Source of the DNA: Amoebidium appalachense
Lineage: Eukaryota > Protista > Ichthyosporea
Assembly (NCBI GenBank): GCA_963693365.1
Contig: CAVNZM010000006.1
Span: 3,741,767 to 3,805,766 of the forward strand
Length of the DNA stretch: 64,000 bases
Direction: 5' to 3'
The notes under the pieces were generated by a model. That model made no database searches. It was given only the letters and a program-made list of their open reading frames with translations, and was not told the origin of the DNA. Positions 42,674 to 64,000 of this stretch are shown piece after piece. The translations under genes were made by a program, and so were the position numbers. Numbering within the stretch: the first letter of the stretch is position 1; each line of letters begins with the position of its first letter.

Positions 42674-43353
42674 CCCCCCCCCCCCCCCCCCCCCCCCTCT
42701 CTCGAGCTCTCTCTTTCTCTCTCTCTCCATCTCTCTCGAGTCTCTCTTTCTCCCCCTCTGGCCCACGAGACTCACATGCGCATGTGGCTCTCAGGCTGTC
42801 GGCAAAGCTAAATCCCGGTAGATAGATGTTCGCTGCTGCTGCACGGTTCGCAGCATGTTTTACAGGGTACGAAATTATTGTTTGTTCCTTAGTCAGTACG
42901 TTATGTACATAGTTTGGCGGTTGTGTGCTGCTCGAGAGACCCTAATTCAGATAAAAGCCGTTTTTTATTAGTATAGTTCTTTTTATTTTGAAAATGCTAG
43001 GGCAAAGGCCACGAATTTTAGCGTGTCTAACCCCCAAAACTCACATCACATGCTCGTCATTGTCGTCAATACTTTCCCGAGTTGGACTAGTCTTGTGATC
43101 TGGTAACTTTGAGATCAAACCCCCCACCAAACCCTCCGATCCGATCGCGATCGATCTATTTCCCACTTCCCACTTTTCCTACTTAAAATCGAAAAAGAGA
43201 AAAAAAAAGAGATAAAACAAACGATACAGCATTACCCACTTCTAAGTGGGAAAGTGGCCAATGACAACAAACACTTATCGATTTAAACCTAAAACGCGAT
43301 AACATAGTGTCACACTAAGGATCAGGCCGGGGAACGGGGAACGGGGGACGGGA

Positions 43354-43697
43354 AGCAAAACGTCTAAGTATGGACACTGGCACAGAGAGACAGAGAGCAA
43401 AAAGTCTAAGTCTACACGCGAGACAGAGAGCAAAAAGTCTAAGTCTACACGCGAGACAGAGAGCAAAAAGTCTAAGTCTACACGCGAGACAGAGAGCAAA
43501 AAGTCTAAGTCTACACGCGAGACAGAGAGCAAAAAGTCTAAGTATGGACACTGGCACAGAGAGAGAGAGAGCAAAACGTCTAAGTCTACACGCGAAGCAC
43601 GAGAGAGAGAGAGAGCAAAACGTCTAAGTCTACACGCGAGACAGAGAGCAAAAAGTCTAAGTCTACACGCGAGACAGAGAGCAAAAAGTCTAAGTCT
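43354..43697. repeat. 33-bp tandem repeat (agcaaaaagtctaagtctacacgcgagacagag) with longer variant units
   Basis: Directly visible; roughly nine to ten units including variants. Confidence 0.95.
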
Positions 43698-43710
43698 TGA
43701 GTCTTGACCC

Positions 43711-43917
43711 GGGCAGGTGAGGCACGTGAGGCAGGTGAGGCAGGGGGGCAGGGGGGGCAGGTGAGGCAGGCACGTGAGGCAGGTGAGGCAGGGGGGCAGG
43801 GGGACAGGGGGGGGGGGCACGTGAGGCAGGTGAGGCAGGTGAGGCACGCGAGGCACGTGGGGCACGCGAGGCACGTGGGGCACGTGGGGCACGCGAGGCA
43901 GGGGGGGGGGGGGGGGG
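43711..43917. repeat. G-skewed 9-bp tandem repeat (ggcaggtga / ggcacgtga / ggcacgcga) ending in a G run
   Basis: Directly visible. Confidence 0.9.
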
Positions 43918-44079
43918 TATTTTCCAAAAACAGGGATCTGTATATACTTCACGGGGGTTTATTTTAGCATACAATATGGGTATAACAATTCCCAACCCAC
44001 ATATTCTGATCAGCATCAACAATCTAAATTCGAGCATATAAATTCCAAAAGGTGAGTGTCGATTTTTTCTATATACAGG

Positions 44080-45165
44080 TCATTCATCCTCGGTATGATC
44101 GGATTGTACATTCATATTTGGACGGAAAAGGAGAGAGGGACGAGATGTGTTATGGTACACAACCAGAGATACACCATTGTCGTCATCACCACTATTTTCA
44201 CTTTCACTTTCACTTTCACTCTCGTCGTCTGACTCGCAATAGGCCAACGTACGCACACGTTCCAAACGCACATGTTCCTCCAAAGACTCCATCTCTACAT
44301 ACAAAGCAAGCGCATCACCACCACCACCACCACCCAAATCGTCACGACTACTCTTACGTCTTTTGACGGAGTCGCCAGAACCGCGTCGGCGAGGCAGACC
44401 ACAACCAAAATGACACTCTTTCGGCTCGACGTTGTGATATCGCTTCAGACGCTGTTCGTTGTTGTACACGTCGCTTGTGAGTTTGGATTTCTGTGCCTGT
44501 AGCACTTTAATCTGACGAGAAAGGGCCCCAATCTCGTCCTTCTTCTGGGCATTCACGGCGGAGGTAGCGGCATACAAATACGAATACTCGGCCAACACAC
44601 AACTGAAAACCTTCTTGTCTTCATCGGTCACAGGCCATGGGTCTTGGTCGTATAGAGCACTGTCACGATATGTCATGAACGCGATGCATTTGCCAACAAC
44701 GTCATCCCAATCAGCTTTGTAGGAGCGATGTACTTCGACGTCGGGCGAAAAAATAGAATCGGCATCGATTTTTTTCAAACACAACCGGAAGTCACGAACA
44801 CCAATTGTTGCTATACCAGAGGTGTCGAGGGTGAGATGTGCACAAACGTCGAGCAACTTATCCAACAAAAAATCGTATTCGTCAATCGAATCGACGACAG
44901 TTTCGTTAGTCACCGCGAGGACCTGTGCGTGATGCCACAATCTGGCAAGGGAAGGCAGGGAAACCCGCATGTTGCTTTGCATGCTCGGGTCACGCTTGTC
45001 GGAGGGTCTTGTTTCCAGTGCATCAAAGAAATCAATAATAACCCGAAAAGTCCCGGAGACACGAGCATAGCGAATAGAAGCCATTGTGAACCCGTTAACA
45101 AGAACGATTCCAAACAGACTTACAAACACAATCAAACACCGAAATTTTGTGTCGCTACATGTCAC
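44080..45165 (-). CDS. Viral hypothetical protein with coiled-coil and acidic C-terminus (alternative start 45084)
   Basis: 361-aa intronless ORF of normal composition; heptad-like IGALSRQIKVLQAQKSKL and an acidic ESESES tract. Confidence 0.75.
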   Translation of the reverse strand: MTCSDTKFRCLIVFVSLFGIVLVNGFTMASIRYARVSGTFRVIIDFFDALETRPSDKRDPSMQSNMRVSLPSLARLWHHAQVLAVTNETVVDSIDEYDFLLDKLLDVCAHLTLDTSGIATIGVRDFRLCLKKIDADSIFSPDVEVHRSYKADWDDVVGKCIAFMTYRDSALYDQDPWPVTDEDKKVFSCVLAEYSYLYAATSAVNAQKKDEIGALSRQIKVLQAQKSKLTSDVYNNEQRLKRYHNVEPKECHFGCGLPRRRGSGDSVKRRKSSRDDLGGGGGGDALALYVEMESLEEHVRLERVRTLAYCESDDESESESESENSGDDDNGVSLVVYHNTSRPSLLFRPNMNVQSDHTEDE

Positions 45166-45497
45166 GGTTCGTAGACGATGGAAAACAGAAAAAAAAAATC
45201 TCTTCTAAAAAGGGACGCTTACAACACGGCTCGTTCACGATGGAAAACAGAAAAAAAAAATCTCTTCTAAAAAGGGACGCTTACAACACGGCTCGTTCAC
45301 GATGGAAAACAGAAAAAAAAATCTCTTCTAAAAAGGGACGCTTACAACACGGCTCGTTCACGATGGAAAACAGAAAAAAAAATCTCTTCTAAAAAGGGAC
45401 GCTTACAACACGGCTCGTTCACGATGGAAAACAGAAAAAAAAATCTCTTCTAAAAAGGGACGCTTACAACACGGCTCGTTCACGATGGAAAACAGAA
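45165..45497. repeat. 61-62-bp tandem repeat, five full copies plus a partial one
   Basis: gatggaaaacagaaaaaaaa(a)tctcttctaaaaagggacgcttacaacacggctcgttcac at 45177, 45239, 45301, 45362, 45423 and 45484; units differ only in A-run length. Confidence 0.97.
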
Positions 45498-45810
45498 GGC
45501 TTCTGCGACGCGAAGAGTTCTTATAAACATCTGCATTAGCGCAACCACCAAAACGAACCAATGCGCATCACGTAGGGTTCAACTCAGCAAGAAACATAGC
45601 AAATCAAAACAATGCTTTAATTTCGCTTGGCCAATTAAAGGGCTCGCCTTTCACGTTTTTTGGAGTGTATTATTTCGTCTGGCCAATCAAGTGGCCTCGC
45701 GTTTCGCTTTGCAAAAAAAAATAAAGTTCGCCGAGTGAACAACCAACCAAACCACGCAAAAAGCACGCCACCACACATGCTTCCCATTATGGTGACTACC
45801 GCGGCGTTCG

Positions 45811-46030
45811 GGACCAATCAGATCAGCGGTCAAACCACGCGAACCAATCAGATCAACGGTCAAACCGGGCGGACCAATCAGATCAGCGGTCAAACCGGCG
45901 GACTAATCAGATTAGAGGTCAAACCGGGCGGACTAATCAGATCAGAGGTCAAACCGGGCGGACCAATTAGATCAGCGGTCAAACCACGCGAACCAATCAG
46001 ATCAGAGGTCAAACCGGGCGGACCAACCAG
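45811..46030. repeat. 30-bp tandem repeat with a CCAAT(CA)-like core, about seven copies
   Basis: gaccaatcagatcag(c/a)ggtcaaacc(ggg/acg)cg units. Confidence 0.95.
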
Positions 46031-46134
46031 ATCCGATTTAGATACGGATCGAAAAAAAAGGCCCAGGCGGTGCTGTGAAGGGTCGTATCGCGCGACAGAC
46101 ACAGCCTTCCTCTTTTTATTGGTACAAGTGCACA

Positions 46135-46404
46135 ATGTGGCCTTGGGTAGTCGCGTCCGCCATCTCATTCGTCCTGTTCTGGTTGACGCTGATATCATGT
46201 GACGTTCATAGAATAAACAGATCACTGAAGCAAAAAACCGGGCCCCACCCAATACTGGACCCATTGTGCGACAACTTCATGATTCGCTGGCTGTGGATAC
46301 TGTTGCCACTAATGCTTGCATATACATACACCACATCCACACAATTCACCGAGACGGAAACCACACAGAAAATACTTTCAGGTGCTACACCCGTATCAAC
46401 TTGA
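46135..46404 (+). CDS. Small viral protein with two hydrophobic segments
   Basis: MWPWVVASAISFVLFWLTLI and IRWLWILLPLMLAY. Confidence 0.5.
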   Translation: MWPWVVASAISFVLFWLTLISCDVHRINRSLKQKTGPHPILDPLCDNFMIRWLWILLPLMLAYTYTTSTQFTETETTQKILSGATPVST

Positions 46405-46732
46405 AACGACCCACCCCTTTGAAAGGTGGATCCCACCAGGGCTCTCGCTTGGCAATCACCACGACTTCCGGTACACGAGATTGTGTTTTTGTCAAAACAC
46501 CGACGAGTTCACCGACATTCCAACATATATCTGGAATCGACAGGCTGCTCGCCAACGCGTTCACAACAAAGCGGCTTTTTTGATCCACTCCACATACTTG
46601 TGTAATCAAATCACTCGTCGCGGAAAGAACCACAGTCCCAGAGTGAGCACGCGCGCTGCGCAGCATGTTGTCTAACCGCCCGCGATCTCCCACGTACCAA
46701 TAACACCCTGGGTTGTACACTTCCACGTCCAT
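46385..46732 (-). CDS. Viral hypothetical protein
   Basis: 115-aa ORF from the ATG at 46732 with globular composition, convergent with the neighbouring ORF. Confidence 0.55.
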   Translation of the reverse strand: MDVEVYNPGCYWYVGDRGRLDNMLRSARAHSGTVVLSATSDLITQVCGVDQKSRFVVNALASSLSIPDICWNVGELVGVLTKTQSRVPEVVVIAKREPWWDPPFKGVGRFKLIRV

Positions 46733-46914
46733 TTCACAAGGAAAAAGATTAAATTGACACGACAGACCAACGATCACTGGGTTTTATTGTTTATCAATAT
46801 ACAAATGACCAGATACAGTGCCACCGGTGACCAGTCACCTGCATTTATTAGGACGAAACCCACAAGACCCCAAGCGGGCCTGGCCGCGGAGGGCAAATCC
46901 ACGGCAAGCCGTCT

Positions 46915-47787
46915 TCAAAGTGCGTGTCCTACATGGCCCGAGTTGTTCCACGGTGTCGGTCTTCTACGCAGTCTGCGAGGCAGGCCGAAGAACTCGGTTG
47001 TGCGGTTGCGGGCGTGGACGGTGTCCAACACGGCGTCCCTTAGCGGCAGACCCGCGTTCTCGACCTGGACGATGACCCGCTCAAAGAACGGGTCGAGCCA
47101 CTCGGCGGCCCAGTCGTCAAGCGCGGTGGTGAAGTCTTGAGCGGCCACAGCGCCGGGGGCCATCGAAACGGGGGCACCGTGCTCGATCCCGACGCGGTAG
47201 GCACCCTCTTGCAGGGTGGACGGAGGCGCGGCAGGCGATGGGGTAGTGCGTACGACGTCCTCAAACAGGAGGCTGGGCATGACCCAGTAGGGTTTCCTGG
47301 AGATGGCAGGCGCCACACCATCGACTTCATCCAAGTCGGGATCCCCAAAAACGTTCCAGAAAACCCATCCGTCTCTGGTCGGCTTGGTGGCGTATATGGG
47401 GGGCAGTCGTTCACATCCGTAGCCATACCCCATGCCGGCCTCACTGTCGCTGAGCATGGTGTCGAATTCATAGTAGTATTCGCTGAGGGTCGGGTCGGTA
47501 ACGGGGTGTCCGGGCTTGTACAGTTTGATGTAGCTGAGGATGGAACGTTCGTCGCGCTCATAACGAGTCATGCCATTTACACCAACACTCTGGACACTGA
47601 TCTGTCCGTTTGACAGAATGGGAATAGCCACCCTGTGTTCGTGGTCCCATCTCGGCTCACTTAGCCACGACCAATCCCGGCCATCGCCCGTGGATTCTGT
47701 AACGCATTCAAATTTGCGGTCTAGGTACCTCGTGAGCTCGTCCTCCGTGGCGATGCGGGTCAGTTCCATGCGCGCCGGCATTTTCAT
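46915..47787 (-). CDS. Viral hypothetical protein (290 aa)
   Basis: Long ORF with upstream TATAAAA and CCAAT boxes and a downstream AATAAA on the minus strand. Confidence 0.8.
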   Translation of the reverse strand: MKMPARMELTRIATEDELTRYLDRKFECVTESTGDGRDWSWLSEPRWDHEHRVAIPILSNGQISVQSVGVNGMTRYERDERSILSYIKLYKPGHPVTDPTLSEYYYEFDTMLSDSEAGMGYGYGCERLPPIYATKPTRDGWVFWNVFGDPDLDEVDGVAPAISRKPYWVMPSLLFEDVVRTTPSPAAPPSTLQEGAYRVGIEHGAPVSMAPGAVAAQDFTTALDDWAAEWLDPFFERVIVQVENAGLPLRDAVLDTVHARNRTTEFFGLPRRLRRRPTPWNNSGHVGHAL

Positions 47788-47849
47788 AACAGAGAATGTT
47801 CATGTGAAAGTGGAAATGCGAACTGGTGGCCTGTTCTTGTGTGGTAAGC

Positions 47850-47990
47850 TTTTATACCGGATGTCGCGCAAGCATCAAGCCAATCAGATTTCACACCCGT
47901 CAACCAATCAAGAACCAGATAAAGAGCAAACACAAGATCCACCAATCGGAAATCAGAAGTCACATCCAAAGACCTTGCACCAATCAAAGC
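47850..47990 (-). promoter_or_regulatory. TATA box plus four CCAAT boxes upstream of the 47787 ATG
   Basis: TATAAAA on the minus strand at 47850-47856; CCAATC at 47880, 47904, 47942 and 47980. Confidence 0.6.
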
Positions 47991-48020
47991 CACAACATCC
48001 CCCCTGATCTGTCGCCCTGC

Positions 48021-48311
48021 CTAGTTCTCTTTATTTTCCATGGGCGGCTCCGGCTCGTCATCGGGTTCTAACATCCTTTGCATGACAATCGCGGTCATGG
48101 CCTGGTTCTTGGGCACCCAGTGCTTGAACCCACACTTCCGCGCGAGCTCGTCGGGCAGGTCGATGTAGCCCTTCTCCGCGAGCTCCCTGGCGTAGCGCTG
48201 CTTCTCGCGCTCGGTGTGGCGTTGCGTTTCCTCTGTGGGCACAACCGTGGCCTGGATGACGGGGGCCTTGCCTGGCTCCTCCTTGAGCTTGTATTCCCAG
48301 CGATACGCCAT
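48021..48311 (-). CDS. Viral hypothetical protein (96 aa)
   Basis: Strong G/C third-position bias in this frame; charged helical sequence. Confidence 0.75.
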   Translation of the reverse strand: MAYRWEYKLKEEPGKAPVIQATVVPTEETQRHTEREKQRYARELAEKGYIDLPDELARKCGFKHWVPKNQAMTAIVMQRMLEPDDEPEPPMENKEN

Positions 48312-48426
48312 ACGTGTGGCACCAATAAAAATACAAACAGACGTTTATTGAGTTTGTGTGTTGTGAAGGCGGGGGCCAGCCCCGCGTGTGTGTAGTGAAA
48401 TGTACATGGTGTGTGTGCGTGTGTGG

Positions 48427-49377: not shown

Positions 49378-49450
49378 TCTTGTGTCGGTTCCCGTGTTTG
49401 CCCGGTGAGATTCTTGGAGCCATTTTAATGGCCGTTGCCGCTTGGGATAC

Positions 49451-49630: not shown

Positions 49631-49637
49631 ATCCAAA

Positions 49638-50591
49638 CTAACGCGTGAGGAACCATGTGCTGTTGCTCGGATACGAAGCTAATTTGGAGTCGGCTTCGCC
49701 GACCGTCTTGAGCCATCCAACATTATCCTTGGTCGAGTAGTAGAAAGACTTGCAATTTGGGTCTGCGACGCACGCAATCTTCACTTCGTCCACCGATCCC
49801 TTTATCGACCGAATATCGCTACCGGCGTGTCCGACATCCAATCGCTGCACCCAATTGGGTCCGGACACCGGCTGGCCCGACTGCCAGAGCACGGTGCCGT
49901 TGGCGTCCCGCACGTAGGCGACGCCGTCGTTCTCCATTGTCAGGACCGCCGTGCCCACCTTCCCCTTGCGGTAGGTGTTTGACGCCCATATGACCGCACC
50001 CTTTGCGTCGTACACCACCAGATTGTTGTCTTCCTGCATGACGAGGGAGTAGGGCGAGCCATTCTTGTTGATCTTGTTGTGTGCCCAGAGGACCTTGTTG
50101 GTGCCGCGTTCGGCGACTATTGTGTTCCCGTCTGCCCCCTGCACCAGTTGGTACCGACCGTCGGGCGACACGACCTTCTCCCTGGTTGTGCTGGGCGCCA
50201 CGATCTTGTTGCCGTTTCCCAGCATGCTCATGGCCGGCGGATCTTCCTTCTTTACGACAACGGTGGGGGCGTTGGGGCAGGTGGGACAGTCGGGGCACTT
50301 CTCCTTGGGGGGGCAGGTCGGGCAGGTCGGGCACGTGGGGCACTTTGTGGGGGCCAGGGTGGGGCACGTCGGACAGGTGGGGCAATCCGGGCACTTCTTT
50401 TCGGGGGGGCAGACCGGACAGCTGTTGCATATGCCGCAGGGGCGCCTGCACTTGAGGGTGGTGATGTAGCGGATAAAGCGGGGCCTGTTGGCGTCGTACA
50501 TGACGATGAGGACGAACAGGGCACACAGGCACCACACCCAGGTAGACACGCTGGGGCGGCGAGGGAAAACCTGGGACGGAGGCAAGTCCAT
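49638..50591 (-). CDS. Membrane-anchored bulb-type (B) lectin with CPxCP stalk and C-terminal PAN/apple-like module
   Basis: TM WVWCLCALFVLIVM; (CPT)n repeats; SPDGRYQL...LVMQEDNNLVVY...IWASNT...LWQS carrying the QxDxNxVxY mannose-site motif; GSDI...CVADPNCKSFYY...WLK. Confidence 0.85.
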   Translation of the reverse strand: MDLPPSQVFPRRPSVSTWVWCLCALFVLIVMYDANRPRFIRYITTLKCRRPCGICNSCPVCPPEKKCPDCPTCPTCPTLAPTKCPTCPTCPTCPPKEKCPDCPTCPNAPTVVVKKEDPPAMSMLGNGNKIVAPSTTREKVVSPDGRYQLVQGADGNTIVAERGTNKVLWAHNKINKNGSPYSLVMQEDNNLVVYDAKGAVIWASNTYRKGKVGTAVLTMENDGVAYVRDANGTVLWQSGQPVSGPNWVQRLDVGHAGSDIRSIKGSVDEVKIACVADPNCKSFYYSTKDNVGWLKTVGEADSKLASYPSNSTWFLTR

Positions 50592-50637
50592 TTGGTAGAC
50601 CCACATGAAAATCGCACACAGTCCTGTTTGGCAAGCT

Positions 50638-51045: not shown

Positions 51046-51091
51046 CACTGTGAGACACCAGCATTACGTCCAACCCCAAGACCGCGAGCGG

Positions 51092-52852: not shown

Positions 52853-52860
52853 ATAAAATT

Positions 52861-53457: not shown

Positions 53458-54255
53458 ATCGTGTGGGGGCTAACAAGACCTAGGCATTTTATTGTGCCAC
53501 AAGCAAGGGCCAGTGCGTACACGCGTGTGGATCGCTCTGGGTATACTCTGTTCATCTGTTCACGGACATGCAGCCATGTTGTGGCCGCCGCAGATGCCTT
53601 GCCCGGCAAGCTTTATTAACGAATTGTTGCCACGCGAGACGCGGGCGATGGCAAAGAACAACCAATCATACGGTCAAGACATACCCATGTACCTACTCCA
53701 ATCGTCCAACCTTGAATATGCCAAGTCCGAGCCATGTCGGACGCGCAAAACAACCGGCGAAACCTACACAGTCAAACCCGGAAAGAGATCTAACATCAAA
53801 ACCCAAAACGATGTTCCCCACGGGGAGACTACTACTTCCGCTTTTTCAGAATGGTTAATAGACGCATGCATACGAGTGACATCCAACTAGGCACTCCAAG
53901 TGCAAAAAGGGGTGCTGGTGATACGGCCAATCGGGGCGATGGGATGCAATCCACGCCCCCCGAAATGTGAGCGTCTGTAAAGGGCGGCGGAACATTAGAG
54001 TGCGAGCTACTCTGAGTGAGCTTACTCTGTAAAAGTGTCCAATCGCGAGTTCAACGTACATGTCGAATACGTCGCGGCATGCATTTCGCGCGGCATTGCG
54101 TCGTCGCCTTCAGGTGTGTTTACGTCGCCGGACAGCATTGCGTCATCGCATCCGTGTGCTTGCGTCACCGGACAGCATTGCGTCATCACAATGAAATCGA
54201 CCTTCGCGAACGTTTAAAAGCCCGCGGAACACCCTATGATCGTCAAACCTGCAGC

Positions 54256-55956
54256 ATGTCTCTCTCTCAAGCCTTTCCCGCTATCGCCCACGAGTGGCAC
54301 CCGAGCAAGAATGCCCCGCTGTCTCCGTCGTCCGTGGGGGCCAAGTCCAACAAGAAGGTGTGGTGGCGCTGCGGCACGCCCGGCTGCAACGGCGAGTGGG
54401 AGGCGTATGTGTTTGCAAGGACCAAGCAGGCGCCGGGGTGCGTCGCGTGCCGCAAGAGTGCCGACGCGAAGAAGTACTTTACCAAGAAGCTCGATGCCGA
54501 CAAGACCTTCGCGGTGCTCTTCCCAGACATCGCCGCGGAATGGCACTTTGAGAAAAACCACCCGATCGCCCCGTCCGACATCGGCAAGGGGAGCAAGGTC
54601 TTCTGGTGGAAATGCTCGCGCATCGACTGCGAAACCGAATGGCAGGCCAGCCCCGCAAACCGCACGAAGAACGGGCCGGGCTGTCCGGCTTGCAAGCGCA
54701 AGGAGATCAACATGCGCGTGAAGCCGGACGAGACACTCCGCGCGAAGTTCCCAGCCATCGCCGCCGAGTGGCACCCCACCAAGAACAGCGAGGTCACGCC
54801 GGACAGGGTGCACCACGGCAAGAAGATGAAGGTTTGGTGGGTGTGCGCGAGCGGCCACGAGTGGGAGAACTGGATCCACAACCGCACGCGGCTTGGTAAC
54901 GCCTGCCCCGTGTGTGCCAACAACAAGAGGGCTCGCGCACTCGGGCCCGACGAGGTCGAGATGCCATCCCCGAAACGCCCGCGATCCGAACTGCCCAAGA
55001 ACGACGAAGAGTATGCCGAGAAACGGCGCATAAACCTCGAACGCCGAAGCGCCCACGCTATCGAGATAGGTGCCGAAGGAAAGAAGTGGGTGATGAGCAT
55101 GTTCAGAGAGGCCGGCCTGACCATTATGCCGACAAGGGAAAGCTGTGCCGCCGATTTCCTTTGGGTGACGGAGCCTGATGAAGAACCCCGTGGCTACGCG
55201 GTAACAGTGAAGACTAGCACGCGGCGCGACGAAGCCGCGTTCGCCTTTATGCGGTGCAACAAGTACTCAGGCGGAGTGGTTGCGTGCGTGGGGGACGACG
55301 GTAAGGCACGACGGCTGTGGATCTTTGCTGGAAACGAATCGGTCATGAACGCGGCGGGCAACATAAGCATCGGGCAAGGCGGGCGGACACGATTAGCGGA
55401 CAGGGAAGTCGCGTCCGTCGGACAGCTGGTGACTTCACTTGATGGACTGAAGGAGAACCTCGAACTGCGAACACACGCCCAAGCAAACACCCCAAATGGG
55501 TCGAAACAGCAAAGAGAGACCGAGACGCAGGCGGCCATAGAGCGCGTACTACAGACCAAGTTTGTGTATCCCGAAGTACACGAGCACAACGCCAGGTTCG
55601 ATATGTACTGGAAGGGCCAACGAGTGCAAGCAAAGACGGCTTTGGATATGGGCACGTATTGGCAGTTCGCTCTGGCGACTTACACGGGTGGCCACAGAAA
55701 GAAGACCTGCTACGCTGTCGATGATTTCGACGTCCTCATGGTCTTCCTCCCTGAGGGATCTGTGGCAAGGGTTTTATTTGTTCCCGTTGTCGTCCTGCGC
55801 GACATGGGTCTGGTGGCGGGGACCCACGGACCCAAGGCCGCTCCGTGTGTAGTTCTTTACAAGGACGGTTCTGGCAAGTACGGCGGTCTTTCGCGCTTTG
55901 TGTTTCCTGTGGTCGACGATCTTGAGGAGAAATTCACATCGATGTTTAGTGTGTAG
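54256..55956 (+). CDS. Three treble-clef zinc-finger repeats (DUF4379-like) fused to two PD-(D/E)XK-like nuclease domains
   Basis: FPAIAHEWHPSKN...KVWWRC...HEW...CPxC occurs three times; then ADF...AVTVKT and RFD...RVQAKT followed by YAVDDFDVLMV. Confidence 0.8.
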   Translation: MSLSQAFPAIAHEWHPSKNAPLSPSSVGAKSNKKVWWRCGTPGCNGEWEAYVFARTKQAPGCVACRKSADAKKYFTKKLDADKTFAVLFPDIAAEWHFEKNHPIAPSDIGKGSKVFWWKCSRIDCETEWQASPANRTKNGPGCPACKRKEINMRVKPDETLRAKFPAIAAEWHPTKNSEVTPDRVHHGKKMKVWWVCASGHEWENWIHNRTRLGNACPVCANNKRARALGPDEVEMPSPKRPRSELPKNDEEYAEKRRINLERRSAHAIEIGAEGKKWVMSMFREAGLTIMPTRESCAADFLWVTEPDEEPRGYAVTVKTSTRRDEAAFAFMRCNKYSGGVVACVGDDGKARRLWIFAGNESVMNAAGNISIGQGGRTRLADREVASVGQLVTSLDGLKENLELRTHAQANTPNGSKQQRETETQAAIERVLQTKFVYPEVHEHNARFDMYWKGQRVQAKTALDMGTYWQFALATYTGGHRKKTCYAVDDFDVLMVFLPEGSVARVLFVPVVVLRDMGLVAGTHGPKAAPCVVLYKDGSGKYGGLSRFVFPVVDDLEEKFTSMFSV

Positions 55957-56123
55957 AGTTGTGCAAAATCAAATGTAATCGACTCGTGCATGGGTACAAT
56001 AAATAAAGTTCGTCAGACCAATTGTATACGCACTATGGCATAACATCGATTGTTTGCAGGGTACAATTCTACACGCATCATAATATCATCTGTGTATACA
56101 CTGGAATCGATTAGTATGGGTGA

Positions 56124-57404
56124 TCAACTAAATCGAATTGATAGCATCCCACCACTGATGCTCACTAGGTTGTGACCTCTTGCGTAGACCCAGAAGTCCA
56201 CCATGTTGGTCATGGACTCGTGCATCTCGAGGTTGAGGTCGATGGTGTCGATGCGCGAGAAGTTGGTTGATCCGGTCGGCTGAATGGAGTCTTCGGGTTG
56301 AAGGGCGTAGGGGACCATGAACATCTTGAGTGCGGGGGAGCGGGTGTGGTACTTCTGCACAAGCACCTTGTGCGCGAAGAGACCACTGTAGTTGTACTGC
56401 ATGCCCGTGTTGTTGTACTTGACGTCGATCTTCTGGATCGGCAGATACAAGGGGTTGTTGAAGTTCTTGCCGGGGCTGGCAAAGTTGAAGAAGTCGTTGC
56501 GGCCAGGGGTGTTGTTGCGCGCGCGGGGCTGGCACACGATCAGCAGCTCCTTGACGGGGAAGCCGAAGTTGAGCTGCTGTGTGACGATCTGCTTCTGGCC
56601 GCCGGTGCTGGTCATGTTCACGCTGAACATCTTCTCCTGCCAGAGGTCGACCAGGTAGTCGTGGCGCTGGGCCTGTGCCCACATGGCACGCTCCTGCTCG
56701 TCGACGAAGATGTACTCGACGATGACGTTGCTGTCGAAGATGGCGCCGCCATACTTGCCCACGGTCTGCGAGGACGGCTGCAGGTCGCCGACGTCGTTGA
56801 TCAGGTCGCGCAGGGGCTTGGTGTCGATGTCGATGCGCACGGTGTGGAACTGCAGCGCGACGATGGGGAGCGCGGCGCCGTACCTGCGGTTGAACCAGAA
56901 CTGCAGCGGAAAGAAGTACTCCATGTCGTGGTTGGCCCAGTCGCGCAGCTGGCTGACGTGTTCAGCCTTGCCGATGGCGATGCCAAGGCCCTTGCCCGGG
57001 GGCGTCTCGATGTCCTCGAGCATGGCCAGCAGGCGGCCCACGTGCTGGTCGATGCGGTAGGTGCCTACATTGAGCTCGATGCGGTTGAAGAGCGCATAGG
57101 GCAGCATGTTGACGAAGTGGGCGTTGTACGGCAGCAGGTCGGAGCCCGGGGGGCCGCGCTTGAGGGCCTGGACCTTGAAGTGGATCCACAGGTCCTTGAT
57201 CAGATCACCGGAGCGGCTGATCTCACAGTTGCAACCGGTCGAGCCGTAGTCCAGGGCGGTCTGGAAGTTCACGCGGAAGAACTCGATGGAGAAGTTGTTG
57301 ATCTGGGCATACTTGCTCCGGAAGAGGGTCTTTGTGGGCTTGAAGGTCAGCACCGAGTCCTGCACGCCCTTGGACACCAGCTGAACGATTGCCGAGCTAG
57401 ACAT
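56124..57404 (-). CDS. MCP: NCLDV double jelly-roll major capsid protein
   Basis: VQLVSKGVQDSVLT, FRSKY...NFSIE, ISRSGDLI, PLQFWFNR...ALPIVALQFHTVRI, NFGFPVKEL, YALQPEDSIQPTGSTNFSRID, YARGHNLVSISGGM. Intact at 426 aa. Confidence 0.97.
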   Translation of the reverse strand: MSSSAIVQLVSKGVQDSVLTFKPTKTLFRSKYAQINNFSIEFFRVNFQTALDYGSTGCNCEISRSGDLIKDLWIHFKVQALKRGPPGSDLLPYNAHFVNMLPYALFNRIELNVGTYRIDQHVGRLLAMLEDIETPPGKGLGIAIGKAEHVSQLRDWANHDMEYFFPLQFWFNRRYGAALPIVALQFHTVRIDIDTKPLRDLINDVGDLQPSSQTVGKYGGAIFDSNVIVEYIFVDEQERAMWAQAQRHDYLVDLWQEKMFSVNMTSTGGQKQIVTQQLNFGFPVKELLIVCQPRARNNTPGRNDFFNFASPGKNFNNPLYLPIQKIDVKYNNTGMQYNYSGLFAHKVLVQKYHTRSPALKMFMVPYALQPEDSIQPTGSTNFSRIDTIDLNLEMHESMTNMVDFWVYARGHNLVSISGGMLSIRFS

Positions 57405-57495
57405 GTTTAAGATTTGCCAACATAATATCGCACAGGACCACGTCTGGATGGAAAAGGCCGCGGGATAGCGCGCATTTTGTCCGCCAGAGACTAGA

Positions 57496-58305
57496 ATGCC
57501 CTATACCGACTTTGACGCGCTCGCCAACGACGTCACCGGTCCCGCGCGCAGGCTGCAGATTCTCGCGGTGGACCGGTACGCCCAGGACTTCGACGTGACC
57601 CCCGAGGTCACCAAGGCGGCGGCGTTGCTGCTTGCGGGGTCCATCGACGACTTCGCCGAACACCTGGCGGCCGACAAGCCCGTGCCGCTGACCGCCCTGG
57701 GAATCGTCGACCTTGCGCACTGCCTGTGGGCGCAGATCAAGGACGGCAAGTTCAGGTTCAGCAGGGCGCTGCGCGTGGCCGAGGACATCTACCAGCGCAC
57801 GCGCCTGGCATGCCTCTCGGCGACGGCCGCGGACTTCAACCGCACGCTGGTCGATGGGTACGGCGTGCCTTCGACTCTGGTGACGGACATCAGCAGGTAC
57901 TCGAGGTTCGATGGTCTGCGGCTGTCGGACGTGGCGGCCGTCAACCGCTGGCTTGTCGCAGTGGAAAGGACGCTGCACGAGAAGGACGCCAGCGCGGCGC
58001 TGGTCATACCGCCTGAGATCCGCAAGCTGCGGCCGCGCGAGTGGTGCCAGAAGCCCGAGGAGACGTTCAAGCGGCGGACGGAGCTACACGAGGACCTGTA
58101 CCAGCGGTGGCGCAACTTGCTGTACAAGCCCATAAACATGGTCCGGCTGGAGGCGAAGGACATAGACAAGAACACGCTGCTTGCGGTGCACCACCGCCGT
58201 CTGAACGGCCAGCACGTGGACGCGTTCATGGCCGGCACGGCCGTCGACGTGCGCGGGACCCCGAACCCCCTTAAGACAAGCGCGTTCCTGGCCGCAAGTG
58301 CGTAG
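57496..58305 (+). CDS. Viral hypothetical protein, paralog A
   Basis: 269 aa; shares AEDxYQR, DFN, EDLYxRWRN and LxAxxHRxL motifs with the next ORF. Confidence 0.85.
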   Translation: MPYTDFDALANDVTGPARRLQILAVDRYAQDFDVTPEVTKAAALLLAGSIDDFAEHLAADKPVPLTALGIVDLAHCLWAQIKDGKFRFSRALRVAEDIYQRTRLACLSATAADFNRTLVDGYGVPSTLVTDISRYSRFDGLRLSDVAAVNRWLVAVERTLHEKDASAALVIPPEIRKLRPREWCQKPEETFKRRTELHEDLYQRWRNLLYKPINMVRLEAKDIDKNTLLAVHHRRLNGQHVDAFMAGTAVDVRGTPNPLKTSAFLAASA

Positions 58306-58332
58306 AGCGATTTTTATCGCTGCAGAAATCAG

Positions 58333-59154
58333 ATGGCAACCGACCAAATGAATATGAGGGCGACAGAGTTCAGGTCGTCTGATTTCGCAGATCAAGTGGA
58401 GAAGAAGGAGGACGCACTACCACTGCGACCACTTCAGATTCTACACACGGAGAAGTACGGGAAGCAGTTCAACCTAACCGAGGACGGGGCCAAGCTGTTG
58501 TCGCTGTGTTTCCGCAAAAACGCGGACTGCTTCCTGACGGAGATCCAGCAGAACAGGACACCCCAGCTCTGTGCCCTAGGCATCGTGCTAACCGCAGCGC
58601 AGCTGATGCGATTCGCGGACAGCAACCAATCCCCAACTAAACTGACGGACGCGATCCGCGCGGCCGAGGACATGTACCAGCGATACCGCCTGATGATCAC
58701 CAACCAGCCAAGCCCAGACTTCAACCTCAAAACCGTCGGTCCATGCGGCGGTCCACGCATCCTGATTACGAGCATCCAGGAATACATGAACACATACCAC
58801 GTGAGCTTCGACACCATCACCAAGATAAACCGCACGCTTAGTGACATCAAGAACGCCGCCAAGGCCGGCGTTTTCAATCCCGACATCGTATTCAACGTGC
58901 AGGCACTCGCAAGCGTCACGACGTGTCCTGGGCCCGTGTGTGTTGAGGTCAAGATGCTGGGCCGCGTGCAGCTGTTCGAAGACCTGTACAGTCGCTGGCG
59001 GAACGCAGTGCTGGGGACAAACACGCTGGCGGTTGAAACGACCACGCACAACATGAGCGGGGACAGCCTCGCAGCCCTTTGGCACCGCAACCTCGACCAG
59101 GCCATGCGCCGCAGCAGGTCGTGCATCAAAGCCAACCCGTGTATCGGGCGCTGA
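58333..59154 (+). CDS. Viral hypothetical protein, paralog B
   Basis: 273 aa; colinear similarity to 57496-58305. Confidence 0.85.
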   Translation: MATDQMNMRATEFRSSDFADQVEKKEDALPLRPLQILHTEKYGKQFNLTEDGAKLLSLCFRKNADCFLTEIQQNRTPQLCALGIVLTAAQLMRFADSNQSPTKLTDAIRAAEDMYQRYRLMITNQPSPDFNLKTVGPCGGPRILITSIQEYMNTYHVSFDTITKINRTLSDIKNAAKAGVFNPDIVFNVQALASVTTCPGPVCVEVKMLGRVQLFEDLYSRWRNAVLGTNTLAVETTTHNMSGDSLAALWHRNLDQAMRRSRSCIKANPCIGR

Positions 59155-59183
59155 TACGTGATAAAATGTAACCGAGTACCATA

Positions 59184-59615
59184 ATGAAACAACAGCGCGG
59201 ACCAAGACGGACAGTTATGGACTGCTCTGAACGCCCAACCCGGGCCGACGGAAAGGCCAAGCGCGCAAGACCCTCGCAGGCGAAGCGCGCAAAGACCACG
59301 ACCTCCGCGCCCACCAGGACGCGGAGATGTGGACCCGCGACCGTACGCAGCAGGGTCACCGGGCAGTGCGTGCCGGCGAACCTCGAGAAGCTGCCGATCA
59401 CATCCGAGAGGTCCCTGGTACCCAAGAACTTCTCGGTCAAGCCCGGCGTGGGCGGTGGATCCCCGGGCGACGCCTACTTCAAACCACCAGACAAGGTTGA
59501 CGATCTTGTAAACATGATATATCCAGCAGGAGGGTCAATGACATGCGGCGCGGAACTATTCTACAGCGGAACCGGGGCCAGGCTTGCCGGTTGTTCCATG
59601 TTCCTAGCGAAGTAG
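59184..59615 (+). CDS. Small basic viral protein
   Basis: Arg/Lys-rich N-terminus and a CGPATVRSRVTGQCV motif; codirectional with its neighbours (alternative start 59217). Confidence 0.65.
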   Translation: MKQQRGPRRTVMDCSERPTRADGKAKRARPSQAKRAKTTTSAPTRTRRCGPATVRSRVTGQCVPANLEKLPITSERSLVPKNFSVKPGVGGGSPGDAYFKPPDKVDDLVNMIYPAGGSMTCGAELFYSGTGARLAGCSMFLAK

Positions 59616-59648
59616 TGGCTTGTGCATATGTTTTTGGGCCCGTTTCTA

Positions 59649-60029
59649 ATGTCCCGACACAACCTGAAATCAAAATGCTGGGGCCCAGACGCATGGAAGT
59701 TTATTCATGCCGTCACACTCGGGTACCCCGACGAGCCGAGCGCGCGCAGTAAGGAGCAGTACGAGGCGTTCCTGAACTCGCTCCCGGACGTCCTGCCGTG
59801 CCGGTCGTGCCGCGGGCACTTCGCCAAGCTGGTGCGCAGGTCCAAGTGCAAGCTGTCGCGCCAGGTCCTCAAGAACCGCGACCGCCTGTTCCGCTGGGGC
59901 GTGCGCGTGCACAACGCCGTCAACCAGCGCAAGAAGAAGCGCACGCTCAAGCCGCGGGAGGTGGCACGCCAGTACGACCCGTGGCTGGTTAAGCCAAGCC
60001 GTGGTTCGCAGCCCAGTGCCGCACAATAG
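59649..60029 (+). CDS. Erv1/Alr family FAD-linked thiol oxidoreductase (poxvirus E10R-like)
   Basis: WGPDAWKFIH...YP...LPCRSCRGHF...W...HNAVN family motifs. Confidence 0.95.
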   Translation: MSRHNLKSKCWGPDAWKFIHAVTLGYPDEPSARSKEQYEAFLNSLPDVLPCRSCRGHFAKLVRRSKCKLSRQVLKNRDRLFRWGVRVHNAVNQRKKKRTLKPREVARQYDPWLVKPSRGSQPSAAQ

Positions 60030-60693
60030 TGGCCAGGTGCTGCAGGTACGCCGCGGGGTGCATGTCGTTCTTCGTGTAGTTGCACGTCTTGCAGCAGGGC
60101 ACGCTGTTCCCCTCGGTGTAGCCGATGGCGGGATACAACCTGTCGACACCATTCGAGTTCTCCAACCCACAATAAAAGCAGTCCTTGCCCCGCAGGCTAT
60201 CGAACTCCTTCCGGGTCAATGTAAACACGGACGACGGGCACCGCCGCCCGTTGTCCGTGACGCACCGCTTGCGCGCGCTGCACCTGTACGTGTTGTAGTT
60301 CGTGCTGTACGACCGCGTCGATGGGGGCTGTCGGTAGGCCTTGCGGGCCGTCAGCGCTCGAGCAAGCCGGCGCGCGCCCCCCGCCGACCGTCCAAGTGCG
60401 CGTTTGACCAGTGAGCATTCGAGCATGGTGTGTGCGGCCAGGGCACACAGCTGTGATGTGCGCAGGCCGTGTCTGACCTTGTGGCACGTCGAGCATACCG
60501 GGCGTACGTTCCCGTGCACGTATCCGCGCCGGTACACACACAGCGCGATGTTCCTGTGCGTGCGCTCACGCTCCGCACGGTTGCACACCTGGCAGGGGCG
60601 GCGGAACAGCTCGTTGAGTGCGGTCGAAGACAGGTCCATGGGCAGTTTTTTGTTTGTTGCGTTAGCCCTGATGTTGGACACGAACACATCCAT
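59989..60693 (-). CDS. Protein with two HNH/zinc-binding endonuclease-like repeats
   Basis: CQVC...GYVHGNVRPVCSTCH and CFYCG...NGVDR...GYTEGNSVPCCKTCNYTK. Confidence 0.85.
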   Translation of the reverse strand: MDVFVSNIRANATNKKLPMDLSSTALNELFRRPCQVCNRAERERTHRNIALCVYRRGYVHGNVRPVCSTCHKVRHGLRTSQLCALAAHTMLECSLVKRALGRSAGGARRLARALTARKAYRQPPSTRSYSTNYNTYRCSARKRCVTDNGRRCPSSVFTLTRKEFDSLRGKDCFYCGLENSNGVDRLYPAIGYTEGNSVPCCKTCNYTKNDMHPAAYLQHLATIVRHWAANHGLA

Positions 60694-60714
60694 GATGGCA
60701 CGAGAGCATTAAAA

Positions 60715-60954
60715 TCACAAAACGGTGCCGACCACCACCGTGACGCCGAGGGGGGCGCACATCCCTGCCACCCACGCGGCGTAGCCCACGGACGCGCCCA
60801 TCAGCACGAGGCGCGGCTCAAGCGTCGGGTCGTTTCGTGCACGCTCGAGGATGCGCAGGAGCCCCGGCACCCAGCTGTGGACGAACCCTACACCCACGGC
60901 GCCGTGCAGCTGCAAGCGCTCGCACGTCGCCCTCAGGACGGCCCACCTGTTCAT
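60715..60954 (-). CDS. Small hydrophobic viral protein
   Basis: 79 aa with a hydrophobic C-terminal half, in tandem with the HNH gene. Confidence 0.55.
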   Translation of the reverse strand: MNRWAVLRATCERLQLHGAVGVGFVHSWVPGLLRILERARNDPTLEPRLVLMGASVGYAAWVAGMCAPLGVTVVVGTVL

Positions 60955-61081
60955 CGGCAAGGGGAAAAAGCCACAGCAGATGTGGTGCTCAACGGGTGTG
61001 TGCATGTGACCTGCTTGTGCCGCGACAAAGGTATAAATACCCGCGGGTAGTCCTTCGGCGACAGAACGGTCCCGACGGAAG

Positions 61082-61332
61082 ATGGTGGCATACGACGAAA
61101 TCGAGCTGCTCGACTACCTTGGCGAGCCGCCCTCGAGCGAGACCGAGACCGACGACGACGCCGATTCCCTCCCCCCCTGCTGGACCGGGAGTTCGAGCTT
61201 CTAGTGCACATCTTCCACGAACTGAAGTACCGCTCGGCGACGACGGGGCTGTTTGACCGGCTGACGCTGCGGCAGTTCTACAATCTGGCACACGCGAGCA
61301 GCACGTGCTTCACGTCGGCACGTTGGCGGTGA
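61082..61332 (+). pseudogene. Small acidic viral protein split at the C7 run 61171-61177 (absent from the ORF track)
   Basis: MVAYDEIELLDYLGEPP...DDDADSLPP continues as LLDREFELLVHIFHELKYRS...LFDRLTLRQFYNLA if one C is added. TATAAATA lies upstream at 61032. Confidence 0.6.
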
Positions 61333-61874
61333 GGCTGTCGAGGATGCTGAAGCACAGCTGCCCGAGCTTGGCCGGGTCGCGTGTTTCAAGGAGCGAGCGG
61401 GCGTCTTCGTCTGTCATCTGGGAGGTGGCGGCCTTTGCAATGTTGAATATGTTCGACATGGTCGACGGGTCCAGGGTGGGGAGCGGCGTCTGGCCGCCCG
61501 GAACGTACAGTGGATGTTGGGCCGGGGGGGGGGGTGTCGAGGAGGGGCACCCCCCCGGCATGGCCAACGAGTTTCTGGATGTAGTCGACAACAGCGACCT
61601 TGGTGACTTCGTGCATTCGTGCCCAGGCGTTGTACAGGCCCATCTCGTGCAGCGGGGACGCGTCCGAGTCCAGAAAACCCCAATCGCCTGCATGCACGGC
61701 AGCGGCGAAGGGGACCAGCCTGTCCGCGAACATGCGTGCAGGCAGGGCTGGGTCTATGTCGGCCGTCGCTGCGGCGAGCTGGCGAGCCTGAGTGATCTCG
61801 GGGAGGTCGGGGAATGCGCCCTGCAATTTCGAGCAGAGTTCGTCCAGGCAGGCATTGAATGCAACGGCGTCCAT
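61310..61874 (-). pseudogene. NCLDV-type helical hypothetical protein, frameshifted in the G/C runs at 61524-61556
   Basis: FNACLDELCSKLQGAFPD...MF...D..FL...W...TKVAVVDYIQKL resembles a family I recall lying near VLTF3. A coding-like C-terminus (MSNIFNIAKAATSQM...) is in another frame. Confidence 0.6.
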
Positions 61875-62191
61875 TGAACAATGACCTACAAAATAAAGGG
61901 CCGCAGCACTACCGACAAAAAAAATGATTCGGGCACATGCAAATGCCACGCAGACGCCGCCATACCCGCACGCGTACGCACGGAGGAAAAGCCGGATCGC
62001 CCTTCCACAAGCTCGCGCTGGGGCTCCTGACTGAAAGCGTGCACGAGAAGGCGCCGGGATGCATGCCCCGACACACCGCCAAGACCATCGCGAACGCAAG
62101 ATACCATCTGATGCGCCGACAGATGCGGCGCATGGCATGCAGCAGGTGGTGTTCCCTCGAGGCCTAAACACAAGGGTGTTGGTCGTTTTTT

Positions 62192-63178
62192 CTAGACGGT
62201 CATGAGACAACGCGGGGTTGTCCTTGTTTTAATAAAAGCCCAATCCAGCCGGTTGCAGATGGCCCTCCATGTGCGATCGTGGTCGCAGAGTTTGTCGGCC
62301 GACTTGAGCAGGGGTATGTGGGCGAGATATGACGTCCAGTCCAGGAGCTCGCAAAACTTGTAGAGCAGGTAGTTGACTGACAGGAAGTTGATGCGATCGT
62401 CACATGCGTCCTTGAAGACGCCCTGTGTCTGCATGAACATGTCCCTCAGGCGGTCCAGCTGCTCGGTGTTGAATTGGGGGCACTGTATGCCAAACGCGCT
62501 CTGCATGATGCTCGGTATGTTGCGGTAGTAGCGGTTCAGCTTACGGCTGCGGAGCAGCTTCTTGACGTGCGCGTGGGTGACTCGTTCCATGGGATAGTGG
62601 GTGCCAGCGGCCTCGCGGACGAACTGGACAACCTCGTCGGGGATGTCCGTGGTCTCCTTGCCCTGAAAGTGCACCAGCGTCTCATTGAAATGGTTGAGAG
62701 GCTTGTACACCTGTTGGCGTTGGCTCCTCGGGGGCGGGTGCTTGAAGAACGACTTGCTGAACTCACAGTAACCGGGGACCGCCTCGCCGCACTCGGTGCA
62801 CACGCTCAGCTCGCGCGTCTTCTCCAGCACGCCGACGCCACAGGCCGTACAGGGGTCGGGCTCCCTGCGGGGCATGCGGTCCTGGACGTCCTCCACGTGG
62901 GTCAGGTACTGGCGGTACACGTCGCGGCGCGATTCGCGGTCGCTGCACTCGTAGTGCTTGAGGATGTACGGCACGGTGTCCAGCAGGAAGTCGATCTCCT
63001 CCTGACCCACCGAATCGTCGCCCACCTTCCTGCGCTTCGCGAACTCGGCCATGCGCAGGTCGACGCGCGACTCGATGTCGTTCTGTGCGACGTGCTGCGA
63101 GTACTGCCTGTCTGCATCACAGGCCTTCTTGGACCGATAGGGAGCCCGCGTCGGGCGCTTGCGTTCGTCGAGCGACAT
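62192..63178 (-). CDS. VLTF3: Late transcription factor VLTF3 (poxvirus A2L-like)
   Basis: CTACG...VCTECG zinc ribbon, YKPLNHFNETLVHFQGKE, LNRYYRNIPSI, RINFLSVNYLLYKFCELL, PLLKSADKL..HD..WRAIC..LDWAFIKT. Confidence 0.95.
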   Translation of the reverse strand: MSLDERKRPTRAPYRSKKACDADRQYSQHVAQNDIESRVDLRMAEFAKRRKVGDDSVGQEEIDFLLDTVPYILKHYECSDRESRRDVYRQYLTHVEDVQDRMPRREPDPCTACGVGVLEKTRELSVCTECGEAVPGYCEFSKSFFKHPPPRSQRQQVYKPLNHFNETLVHFQGKETTDIPDEVVQFVREAAGTHYPMERVTHAHVKKLLRSRKLNRYYRNIPSIMQSAFGIQCPQFNTEQLDRLRDMFMQTQGVFKDACDDRINFLSVNYLLYKFCELLDWTSYLAHIPLLKSADKLCDHDRTWRAICNRLDWAFIKTRTTPRCLMTV

Positions 63179-63230
63179 TGGAATGAGTGGTGTGGGGCAC
63201 GCCGGGCGCCCGTTATTTATACCCTCGAAC

Positions 63231-63938
63231 CTAGGGGGCGGAGTGGACCACGAACAACGCAGGGAAGTGCTGCAGATTGGCCGCGACGCCCCAGCAGCCC
63301 GAGTTTACAGGGTCGACGAGAGCGAAGGTGCTGATTTTGTTGGACCCGCATCCCATCATCTGAAGAACGTCTTGACCCTGGTTGATGGGCTTGCGGCTGA
63401 AGTCGGGCGGCGGAGCCGCGCGCCCAGTCTTGGGCTCGCAGTACCCGAACACGTTCTTTGCCGTCGCAGGGAAACATTCCCCGGCCAACTTGATCGTCCC
63501 CGGCCCGCATTCGCCCGCACGGGACCTCGAACCGGCGGAGCGCACACGCATGGTGGAGACAGGGCGGGGGGCCTGTGTCTGCTTCCTTTGGGTTTGGGGT
63601 GGCGCCTTGACCGGTGCGGGCTTGGTCCTGGCGGGCCTGGCGACGGGCTTGACACGGAACGTCGACATGGCCTTCGGCGTCGCGGTACAGGTGGACACCA
63701 GCGCGCGCGCGCCTTCCATTCTCGCGCGCTTCCTGTCAGGTGCCTGGGCGCCAACCGGGCCGGTCGGTCGCTTGGGTGGTGCGGGGGGGCGGGGGGGCTT
63801 GGATCCGGACGGCGCCGGCGTACCGACACGCTTAGACAGGAGCTCCAGCTTCTTGATCTCCGACTCCAAGTGACCGAGGGTGAGACCCACGCGTGGAGTA
63901 GCAACCCGACCGATTGTCTTCGAGGGCTTGGGTGGCAT
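63231..63938 (-). CDS. Basic Pro/Lys/Arg-rich viral hypothetical protein
   Basis: 235-aa ORF codirectional with VLTF3; Cys-containing C-terminal part (CGPGTIKLAGECF). Confidence 0.65.
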   Translation of the reverse strand: MPPKPSKTIGRVATPRVGLTLGHLESEIKKLELLSKRVGTPAPSGSKPPRPPAPPKRPTGPVGAQAPDRKRARMEGARALVSTCTATPKAMSTFRVKPVARPARTKPAPVKAPPQTQRKQTQAPRPVSTMRVRSAGSRSRAGECGPGTIKLAGECFPATAKNVFGYCEPKTGRAAPPPDFSRKPINQGQDVLQMMGCGSNKISTFALVDPVNSGCWGVAANLQHFPALFVVHSAP

Positions 63939-64000
63939 TTATTGGTGAGCAGAAAAGATATTAAGCACATCGCGCAGCCGCGGTGGCAAGCGCGTTTTGT

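Follow-up and report, generated by a model that had tools for sequence, protein, structure and literature searches.

A probable integrated giant-virus segment with a repeat-rich end in an intron-rich eukaryotic genome

Gene content and left end of the element

The 64,000-nucleotide stretch of DNA analysed here (the window) divides near 43.1 kb into two unlike parts. To the left lie spliced eukaryotic genes; to the right, from 43120 to the end of the window, lies a gene-dense, intron-poor element that is compositionally distinct from this host flank. Simple repeats make up 13.6% of positions 1-42800 (244 runs) as against 0.4% of 43100-64000 (7 runs), splice-like motifs are more frequent per kb in the host part, and the observed/expected (o/e) ratio of CpG after masking is 0.58 in the host part and 1.09 in the element, the switch falling at about 43.1 kb. 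These figures bear out an earlier note on this DNA, according to which microsatellite-laden spliced genes give way near 42.8 kb. The note had further proposed that an integrated giant-virus segment begins there, and this too has held up: because of its marker genes, and because contigs from two sequencing runs contain the junction, we are confident that 43120-64000 is a real integrated segment of the Nucleocytoviricota, the nucleocytoplasmic large DNA viruses (NCLDV). The features on which this reading turns are the following.

43120..43150, no strand: left boundary; the single-copy flank contigs of two sequencing runs (X1 and X3, below) both end at 43150
43341..43697, no strand: terminal tandem array, 33 bp unit
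43717..43917, no strand: terminal G-rich array, 9 bp unit, closing in a G run
45163..45497, no strand: tandem array, 61-62 bp unit, about 5.5 copies
45811..46047, no strand: tandem array, 30 bp unit, about 8 copies
56124..57404, minus strand: NCLDV double jelly-roll major capsid protein, 426 aa, full length (Pfam and predicted structure)
59628..60029, plus strand: Erv1/Alr thiol oxidoreductase with its CxxC motif (PF04777, E 2.6e-21, covering 3-92 of 93 model positions)
62192..63178, minus strand: VLTF3-like late transcription factor, 328 aa, full length (PF04947, E 1.9e-35, covering 5-168 of 168 model positions)

On the viral side 24 open reading frames (ORFs) were scanned with Pfam, and PHROGs and NCBIfam were also searched. 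The capsid, Erv1/Alr, VLTF3 and a DUF4379 protein pass the Pfam cut-offs, and a B-lectin domain falls just short. The capsid protein covers both Capsid_N (PF16903, 1-207 of 207) and Capsid_NCLDV (PF04451, 1-195 of 196). Erv1/Alr is a near-core gene of Nucleocytoviricota. The three hallmark genes that the earlier note recognized are therefore all present, full length and above cut-off; its statement that they are intact is right for these three but does not extend to two other ORFs, which have single-base indels (below). Tight packing of ORFs, which it also described, begins only at 46.1 kb: a chosen ORF set gives a coding density of 84% over 46.1-64 kb and of 77% when counted from 43120, whereas 43.1-46.1 kb holds four tandem arrays (33, 9, 61 and 30 bp units) and one ORF. 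The first 140 bases of the element (43120-43260) consist of a C run, short GATC-rich palindromes and TTCCCAC repeats, and contigs show length variants at 43133 and 43260.

Is the junction present in the reads? Public sequencing runs were surveyed over 41200-47500 of the window, and 20 of the 24 listed runs have part of this region (four named studies, three organism labels), none of them listed as RNA. The junction was then compared with the assembled contigs of four runs: X1 (S1, P1), X3 (S2, P2), X10 (S4) and X16. X1 and X3 each have a contig equal to 42741-43150, with no differences, at depths of 33.6 and 90 respectively, and in both runs the depth leaps right after 43150. Since both contigs stop at this position, and judging from 31-letter words, by which the start was placed, multi-copy sequence begins at about 43120-43121 rather than at 43140 as the earlier note had it. 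As these contigs come from different studies and carry the flank into the first 30 or so bases of the element, the junction is real in the reads. Coverage of the junction region in X16 (18 of 30 bins, depths 4 to 108) is too uneven to interpret. A 1321 nt contig of X10, a run that holds the element deeply, matches the flank over 42752-43081 and then continues for about 970 letters unlike the window. This is likely the empty site, although the contig departs from the window some 40 bases short of the boundary, and so falls short of proof.

Other observations weigh against integration. The junction contigs enter the repeat by only 30-31 letters, which is at the limit of what can be called bridging, and X1 or X3 may itself be the source of the window assembly. 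None of the listed contigs starts in the flank and crosses the arrays to reach a viral ORF, and because of this, linkage beyond 43150 rests on the window assembly and on even depth. Furthermore, Pfam, PHROGs and NCBIfam find no integrase, PolB or A32 ATPase in the visible 21 kb, nor a D5 primase-helicase or RNA polymerase.

Depth and probable copies of the element

The element was compared over 44050-64000, in 30 bins, with contigs of X1, X3, X10 and X20, the last guessed to be an RNA run. All 30 bins are covered in X1 and in X3, and 29 in X10, where one contig crosses the window end, the element continuing past it; X20 has 0 contigs on 44-64 kb, which counts neither for nor against. Across 13 long element contigs per run, median depth is 17 times that of the junction contig in X1 and 24 times in X3, and the core contig of X10 (9813 nt, depth 263) lies at 16-25 times the X10 flank (10.5-17), although contig depth is not copy number and, with a baseline of one or two flank contigs per run, 'about twenty' is a rough figure. 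We consider it probable that the element is one copy of a multi-copy family, likely of about 15-25 chromosomal insertions with the repeat-rich end likely in common. The multi-copy state and the repeat-rich end both escaped the earlier note.

The note had taken sharply different coverage of the viral and host parts as a sign of chimeric assembly. Such a difference is there, but since some contigs span the junction, many copies are a better explanation of it than a chimera. For a chimera, the sequence at 43.1-44 kb would have to be an ordinary host repeat, to which a co-sequenced free virus was joined at a tandem array. Tandem arrays are typical mis-join points, and the absence of a listed contig across those found here would fit, as would the contrast in depth with the flank. 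However, depth in X1 and X3 stays within one order between 43.1 kb and 64 kb and shows no step at the arrays; CpG o/e is virus-like already at 44-46 kb; and a near-identical virus occurs in three samples, under three organism labels, with the host flank in all three. A chimera is accordingly very unlikely.

How alike are the copies? In X1 413 of 778 contigs, and in X3 605 of 1252, match the window at 90-99% identity, as would be expected of many diverged copies. In X10, where there are only 105 contigs in all and a single deep 9813 nt contig covers the core, the copies are nearly clonal; this contig differs from the window at 76 of 7315 letters (99.0% identity over 7.3 kb). Such identity to another sample's copy, with the likely empty site, supports the young age that the earlier note gave the insertion.

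Near-clonality in X10 could also mean that there are one or a few proviruses and many free replicating copies, i.e. a latent or persistent infection in which the extra depth is mostly extrachromosomal. That the capsid, VLTF3 and Erv1 genes are whole agrees with this, and precedents exist in Punuivirus (10.1101/2024.09.03.611062), the phaeoviruses of Ectocarpus (PMC13236599) and persistent skiaviruses (10.64898/2026.07.28.741200). It is harder to square with the many diverged variants in X1 and X3 and with a cassette found in about 0.3 of copies (below), both of which suit many old insertions, or with the similar 16-25x ratio in three samples, which suits a fixed genomic number better. The clonality of X10 may moreover be overstated, since contigs lose rare variants, and PMC11244446 reports neither particles nor capsid reactivation in Amoebidium. 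We therefore regard free copies as an unlikely source of most of the depth and retain a family of chromosomal insertions. The ratio of left-arm to core depth is 1.0 in X1, 1.3 in X3 and 1.6 in X10, where a terminal inverted repeat (TIR) would predict 2; the right end is outside the window.

Within ORFs, near 51.3 and near 61.5 kb, the window departs from the majority contigs of X1, X3 and X10 by single-base indels: the ORF at 51144-52457 looks frameshifted near 51.3 kb, and two overlapping frames at 61310-61874 read like a single gene with a frameshift in the G run near 61.5 kb. These indels could be either decay or assembly (homopolymer) errors. Substitutions were also examined, on the best-supported rows only. 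Seven of the 11 sites at which the window has T/A and other copies have C/G are at CpG, where a share of about 0.3 is expected (p 0.02-0.04), but the reverse transition class, with 7 of 20 at CpG, is not enriched. Loss of CpG from the window copy may thus be a weak hint of host methylation.

The slot directly downstream of the capsid gene varies between copies, and in the window is occupied as follows.

53990..55987, plus strand: optional cassette directly downstream of the capsid gene, with an ORF at 54079-55956

In X10 this interval is taken by other sequence, and loose ends of at least 255 letters occur on both sides; in X1 and X3 the right end of the cassette is at about 0.3 of core depth. 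The ORF encodes three DUF4379 zinc ribbons (Pfam E 2e-45), and for its C-terminal part Atlas features lean to PD-(D/E)XK nucleases (scores 0.86-0.87), a lead only, from which the protein may be a putative nuclease of this class. We infer that the slot after the capsid gene varies in content and here carries a selfish nuclease cassette. In X1 and X3 depth along the cassette gene is greater in the middle than at the ends, as though there were further copies elsewhere.

Viral lineage, remaining genes and the host flank

The capsid protein places the virus in a little-sampled group. Among the best 120 of 252 matches, three are 82-83% identical to it, one is 47% identical and the other 116 are at 25-35%; a profile search of 1.84 billion representatives added one more relative, at 35%. 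A quick tree of 69 rows (the window, the top 60 matches and 8 cluster members, with P0061-P0120 and two fragments left out, and without named references) puts the window within a 13-row clade with a Shimodaira-Hasegawa-like approximate likelihood ratio test (SH-aLRT) support of 100 and a stem of 1.85, adjoining P0003 and P0129 with a support of 84. Outside this clade, capsid identity is at most about 35% among the matches listed, which agrees with the earlier note's suspicion of a poorly described lineage. P0003 is the only named close relative: KAI9549643.1, 'major capsid protein [Daphnia sinensis]', 82% identical and encoded on a 183 kb contig. With P0001, P0002 and P0121-P0129, which are freshwater or run-derived, it forms one clade (81-83% identical to the window, SH-aLRT 98). 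KAI9549643.1 has 407 aa with unrelated last few residues, and its cluster mate P0129 has 423 aa. The sister capsid lineage P0004 / P0130, 47% identical and on a 122 kb ENA contig, is the best outgroup for the clade. The Daphnia sinensis name is likely a mislabel, and the 183 kb contig may be the genome of a virus, close to complete, or may have entered that assembly with the DNA of a passenger.

VLTF3 has 6 matches among 531 candidates, with 33-50% identity. Two of the capsids in the KAI9549643.1 group and two VLTF3 relatives have longest contigs of equal length (6992 and 6734 nt), which suggests that they belong to the same capsid-VLTF3 block. The VLTF3 proteins of the group that includes KAI9549643.1 are only 47-50% identical to the window's, so these relatives are other species or genera. 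Searches of the collections viral_contigs, metagenome_contigs and genome_contigs with the capsid alone gave no close relatives, and VLTF3 gave none in viral_contigs. Searched with the capsid alignment, the contig collections yielded only distant relatives (11 loci and the best 80 of 239, at 24-30% identity), and 15 other element proteins have no match at E 0.1 to those 91 distant loci.

A capsid model built from 100 sequences has a predicted local distance difference test (pLDDT) score of 84; an earlier one from 13 sequences, at pLDDT 38, was unusable. The top Foldseek matches of the model are all NCLDV capsids, with Medusavirus stheno first (24% identity, E 1.8e-33) but nearly tied with Terrestrivirus (21%, E 1.3e-32). 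Membership of the phylum Nucleocytoviricota is secure, whereas the order is not: Mamonoviridae (Medusavirus stheno T3) give the best match among viral structures, yet at 24% identity and in a near-tie with Imitervirales-type capsids there is no family-level match.

Could the element instead be a mid-sized integrating virus, an adintovirus or Polinton-like element of about 30 kb with terminal repeats and a VLTF3? High copy number and a defined end would fit, and the adintoviruses of Amoebidium, according to PMC11244446, carry VLTF3 and keep terminal repeats. However, the capsid is of NCLDV type both by Pfam and by fold, an adintovirus protein appearing first at rank 48 with 9% identity; Erv1 is present; a protein-primed PolB, a Dam methylase and an integrase are all absent from the visible 21 kb; and relatives of the capsid are on contigs of 122 kb and 183 kb, whether or not these are wholly viral. 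Such an identity for the element is highly improbable.

The rest of the giant-virus segment and the host flank have the following content.

1..43119, no strand: host flank, spliced eukaryotic genes with poly-G/C and CA-rich introns
44080..45084, minus strand: ORF without family, 334 aa, acidic C-terminus
46135-46404 (plus), 46385-46732 (minus), 46915-47787 (minus), 48021-48311 (minus) and 48427-49461 (minus): five ORFs without family
49638..50606, minus strand: B-lectin protein with a hydrophobic N-terminus, a Cys/Pro-rich stalk and a mannose-binding domain
50638-51045, 51144-52457 and 52861-53457, minus strand: three ORFs without family
57496..59154, plus strand: tandem paralogues without family, 269 and 273 aa, 31% identical
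59184..59615, plus strand: basic ORF without family, 143 aa
59989..60693, minus strand: HNH / endonuclease VII-like protein, 234 aa (PHROG 1035, E 7e-17)
60715..61874, minus strand: small ORFs without clear family
63231..63938, minus strand: basic Pro-rich ORF without family, 235 aa

The B-lectin domain at 49638-50606 scores 30.7 bits in Pfam (E 4.6e-7) against a cut-off of 32.4, and matches an NCBIfam lectin-like family at E 2e-14, far below the cut-off; the protein is predicted, from its domain layout, to act in attachment at the surface of the virion or the cell. One X3 contig has a fold-back joint here, from 49907 to 49638. The paralogues at 57496-59154 each have an internally repeated motif and lie divergently, head to head with the capsid gene. 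They have no family in Pfam, PHROGs or NCBIfam, and the first has no usable Atlas match.

The genes of the flank, which has a GC content of 50% after masking, include a SacI-homology/synaptojanin-like gene, a short-chain dehydrogenase, a hexapeptide-repeat protein and a short gene ending at 40583. In Pfam, pieces of Syja_N run collinear along the minus strand (13-95 of the model at 4119-4640, 154-182 at 2406-3167), fragments of adh_short and hexapeptide families are found, and 5 of the 23 stretches scanned have clear matches. Eight short stretches (six host, two viral) gave no useful Pfam match, and no homologue was found for a 67 aa SacI-domain exon. A three-exon AG/GT model at 39297-40583, chosen by eye, is open through to the stop at 40583. 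A host stretch of 4 kb, 25950-29900, is free of microsatellites, has a CpG o/e of 0.8-0.9 and contains a Thr/Ser-rich open frame of 737 codons. On the plus strand, over 27933-37382, this frame seemingly runs into spliced hexapeptide-repeat exons and a C-terminal membrane segment; the product would be a surface protein of mucin type with a left-handed beta-helix. Repeated translations also reveal a short sequence present twice, at 729-1064 and 1227-1763, and a relative of it, oriented alike, near 13.8-13.9 kb (13547-13918); it is perhaps a small host repeat element.

The host is likely an ichthyosporean of the Amoebidium type. This is plausible because PMC11244446 describes both intron-rich genes and giant-virus insertions in Amoebidium, and the genomes of this genus are highly repetitive (PMC11286789). 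CGC/GCG words, our own proxy for Amoebidium, give it no support, since they show no special depletion (CGC o/e 0.69, CGA 0.52). Might the lineage infect crustaceans, and the host here be an animal? The only named close capsid is annotated as Daphnia sinensis, on its 183 kb contig. The flank, with its masked GC content, abundant simple repeats and long poly-G/C introns, seems unlike that of Daphnia, and a passenger can explain the record: Amoebidium lives on the cuticle of freshwater arthropods (PMC11244446), which would account for finding a relative among Daphnia contigs, and a different ichthyosporean is a parasite of the gut of Daphnia (PMC6295042). In the literature we found nothing that links Daphnia sinensis with Nucleocytoviricota and nothing on Amoebidium as a Daphnia epibiont. 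An animal host is most improbable, and an Amoebidium-type host remains our preferred one.

Proposed mode of insertion and comparison with known elements

Taken as a whole, the window is best explained, and in our judgement probably correctly, as the left end of an NCLDV genome in an intron-rich eukaryote, a recent copy of a family sharing that end. How such a family would arise is a more tentative matter. A linear viral genome with satellite-bearing ends would insert by its ends at new places in the host genome, the probable agent being a recombinase or integrase whose gene lies beyond the window; the host would then likely methylate and silence each copy; silenced copies would slowly gain substitutions and frameshifts; and the selfish zinc-ribbon nuclease cassette would come and go at its slot beside the capsid gene. 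The end-insertion step is modelled on the giant endogenous viral element (GEVE) of Chlamydomonas, for which TIRs, satellite arrays, a terminal motif and 6 bp duplications are described (10.1101/2024.09.03.611062). End-directed insertion is possible, though we lean slightly away from it. More doubtful still is the bolder proposal that a deep-branching virus is both actively integrating and latent, with ends-first insertion at dozens of sites or replication of the provirus in healthy cultures. Were it true, Holozoa would have their first example of a life cycle like that of Punuivirus, contrary to the published view of stochastic accidents, and the 183 kb Daphnia sinensis contig would be a near-complete wild relative.

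The virus of the Chlamydomonas reinhardtii GEVE reportedly bears the name Punuivirus latens. The window resembles this element in having a whole capsid gene and core genes, variable satellite arrays at the end and a sharp host boundary (10.1101/2024.09.03.611062). For Chlamydomonas, however, the same source describes both ends, with TIRs of 10.8/14.8 kb, an ACC-GGT motif, 6 bp target duplications and virions, whereas the window shows one end only, and the two lineages are unrelated as far as the capsid shows.

A closer comparison is with the GEVEs of Amoebidium appalachense and A. parasiticum (PMC11244446), which confirm the earlier note's statement that giant-virus insertions are reported in this genus. 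That study counts 90 chromosomal and 42 unplaced insertions, intron-poor, near Mamonoviridae within Pandoravirales and polymorphic between isolates; the host has CG methylation, and the insertions are hypermethylated and transcriptionally silent. Like them, the window has a gene-dense, intron-poor NCLDV block with capsid and VLTF3 among intron-rich host genes, and the likeness would extend to the probable many insertions per genome, the likely polymorphism between samples and a possible place near Medusavirus. As a GEVE in what is probably an Amoebidium genome, the element is of a known kind and may be among the published insertions, and with GEVEs in protists including Amoebidium already in print (PMC11244446) the bare finding is ordinary for the field. 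What may be new is the number and likeness of the copies. PMC11244446 calls insertion stochastic, stresses how far the insertions diverge and sees in them the accidental remnants of infections that failed; adintoviruses, by its contrast with GEVEs, retain their terminal repeats. Inverted repeats, episomes, extrachromosomal copies and copy number go unmentioned in its main text, and among the papers listed since 2024 we found no other one centred on Amoebidium giant viruses. No member of the capsid clade has been isolated, and the only sequence in it with a name is entered as a protein of a water flea, a record worth correcting. Unlike the insertions in the account of PMC11244446, the family seen in the window is 95-99% alike and deep, with a sharp, repeat-rich end. 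A high number of near-identical copies and a shared end are possibly the new part, and about twenty such copies with one repeat-rich end would, if real, point to programmed insertion, or to latency, in a relative of animals that can be cultured.

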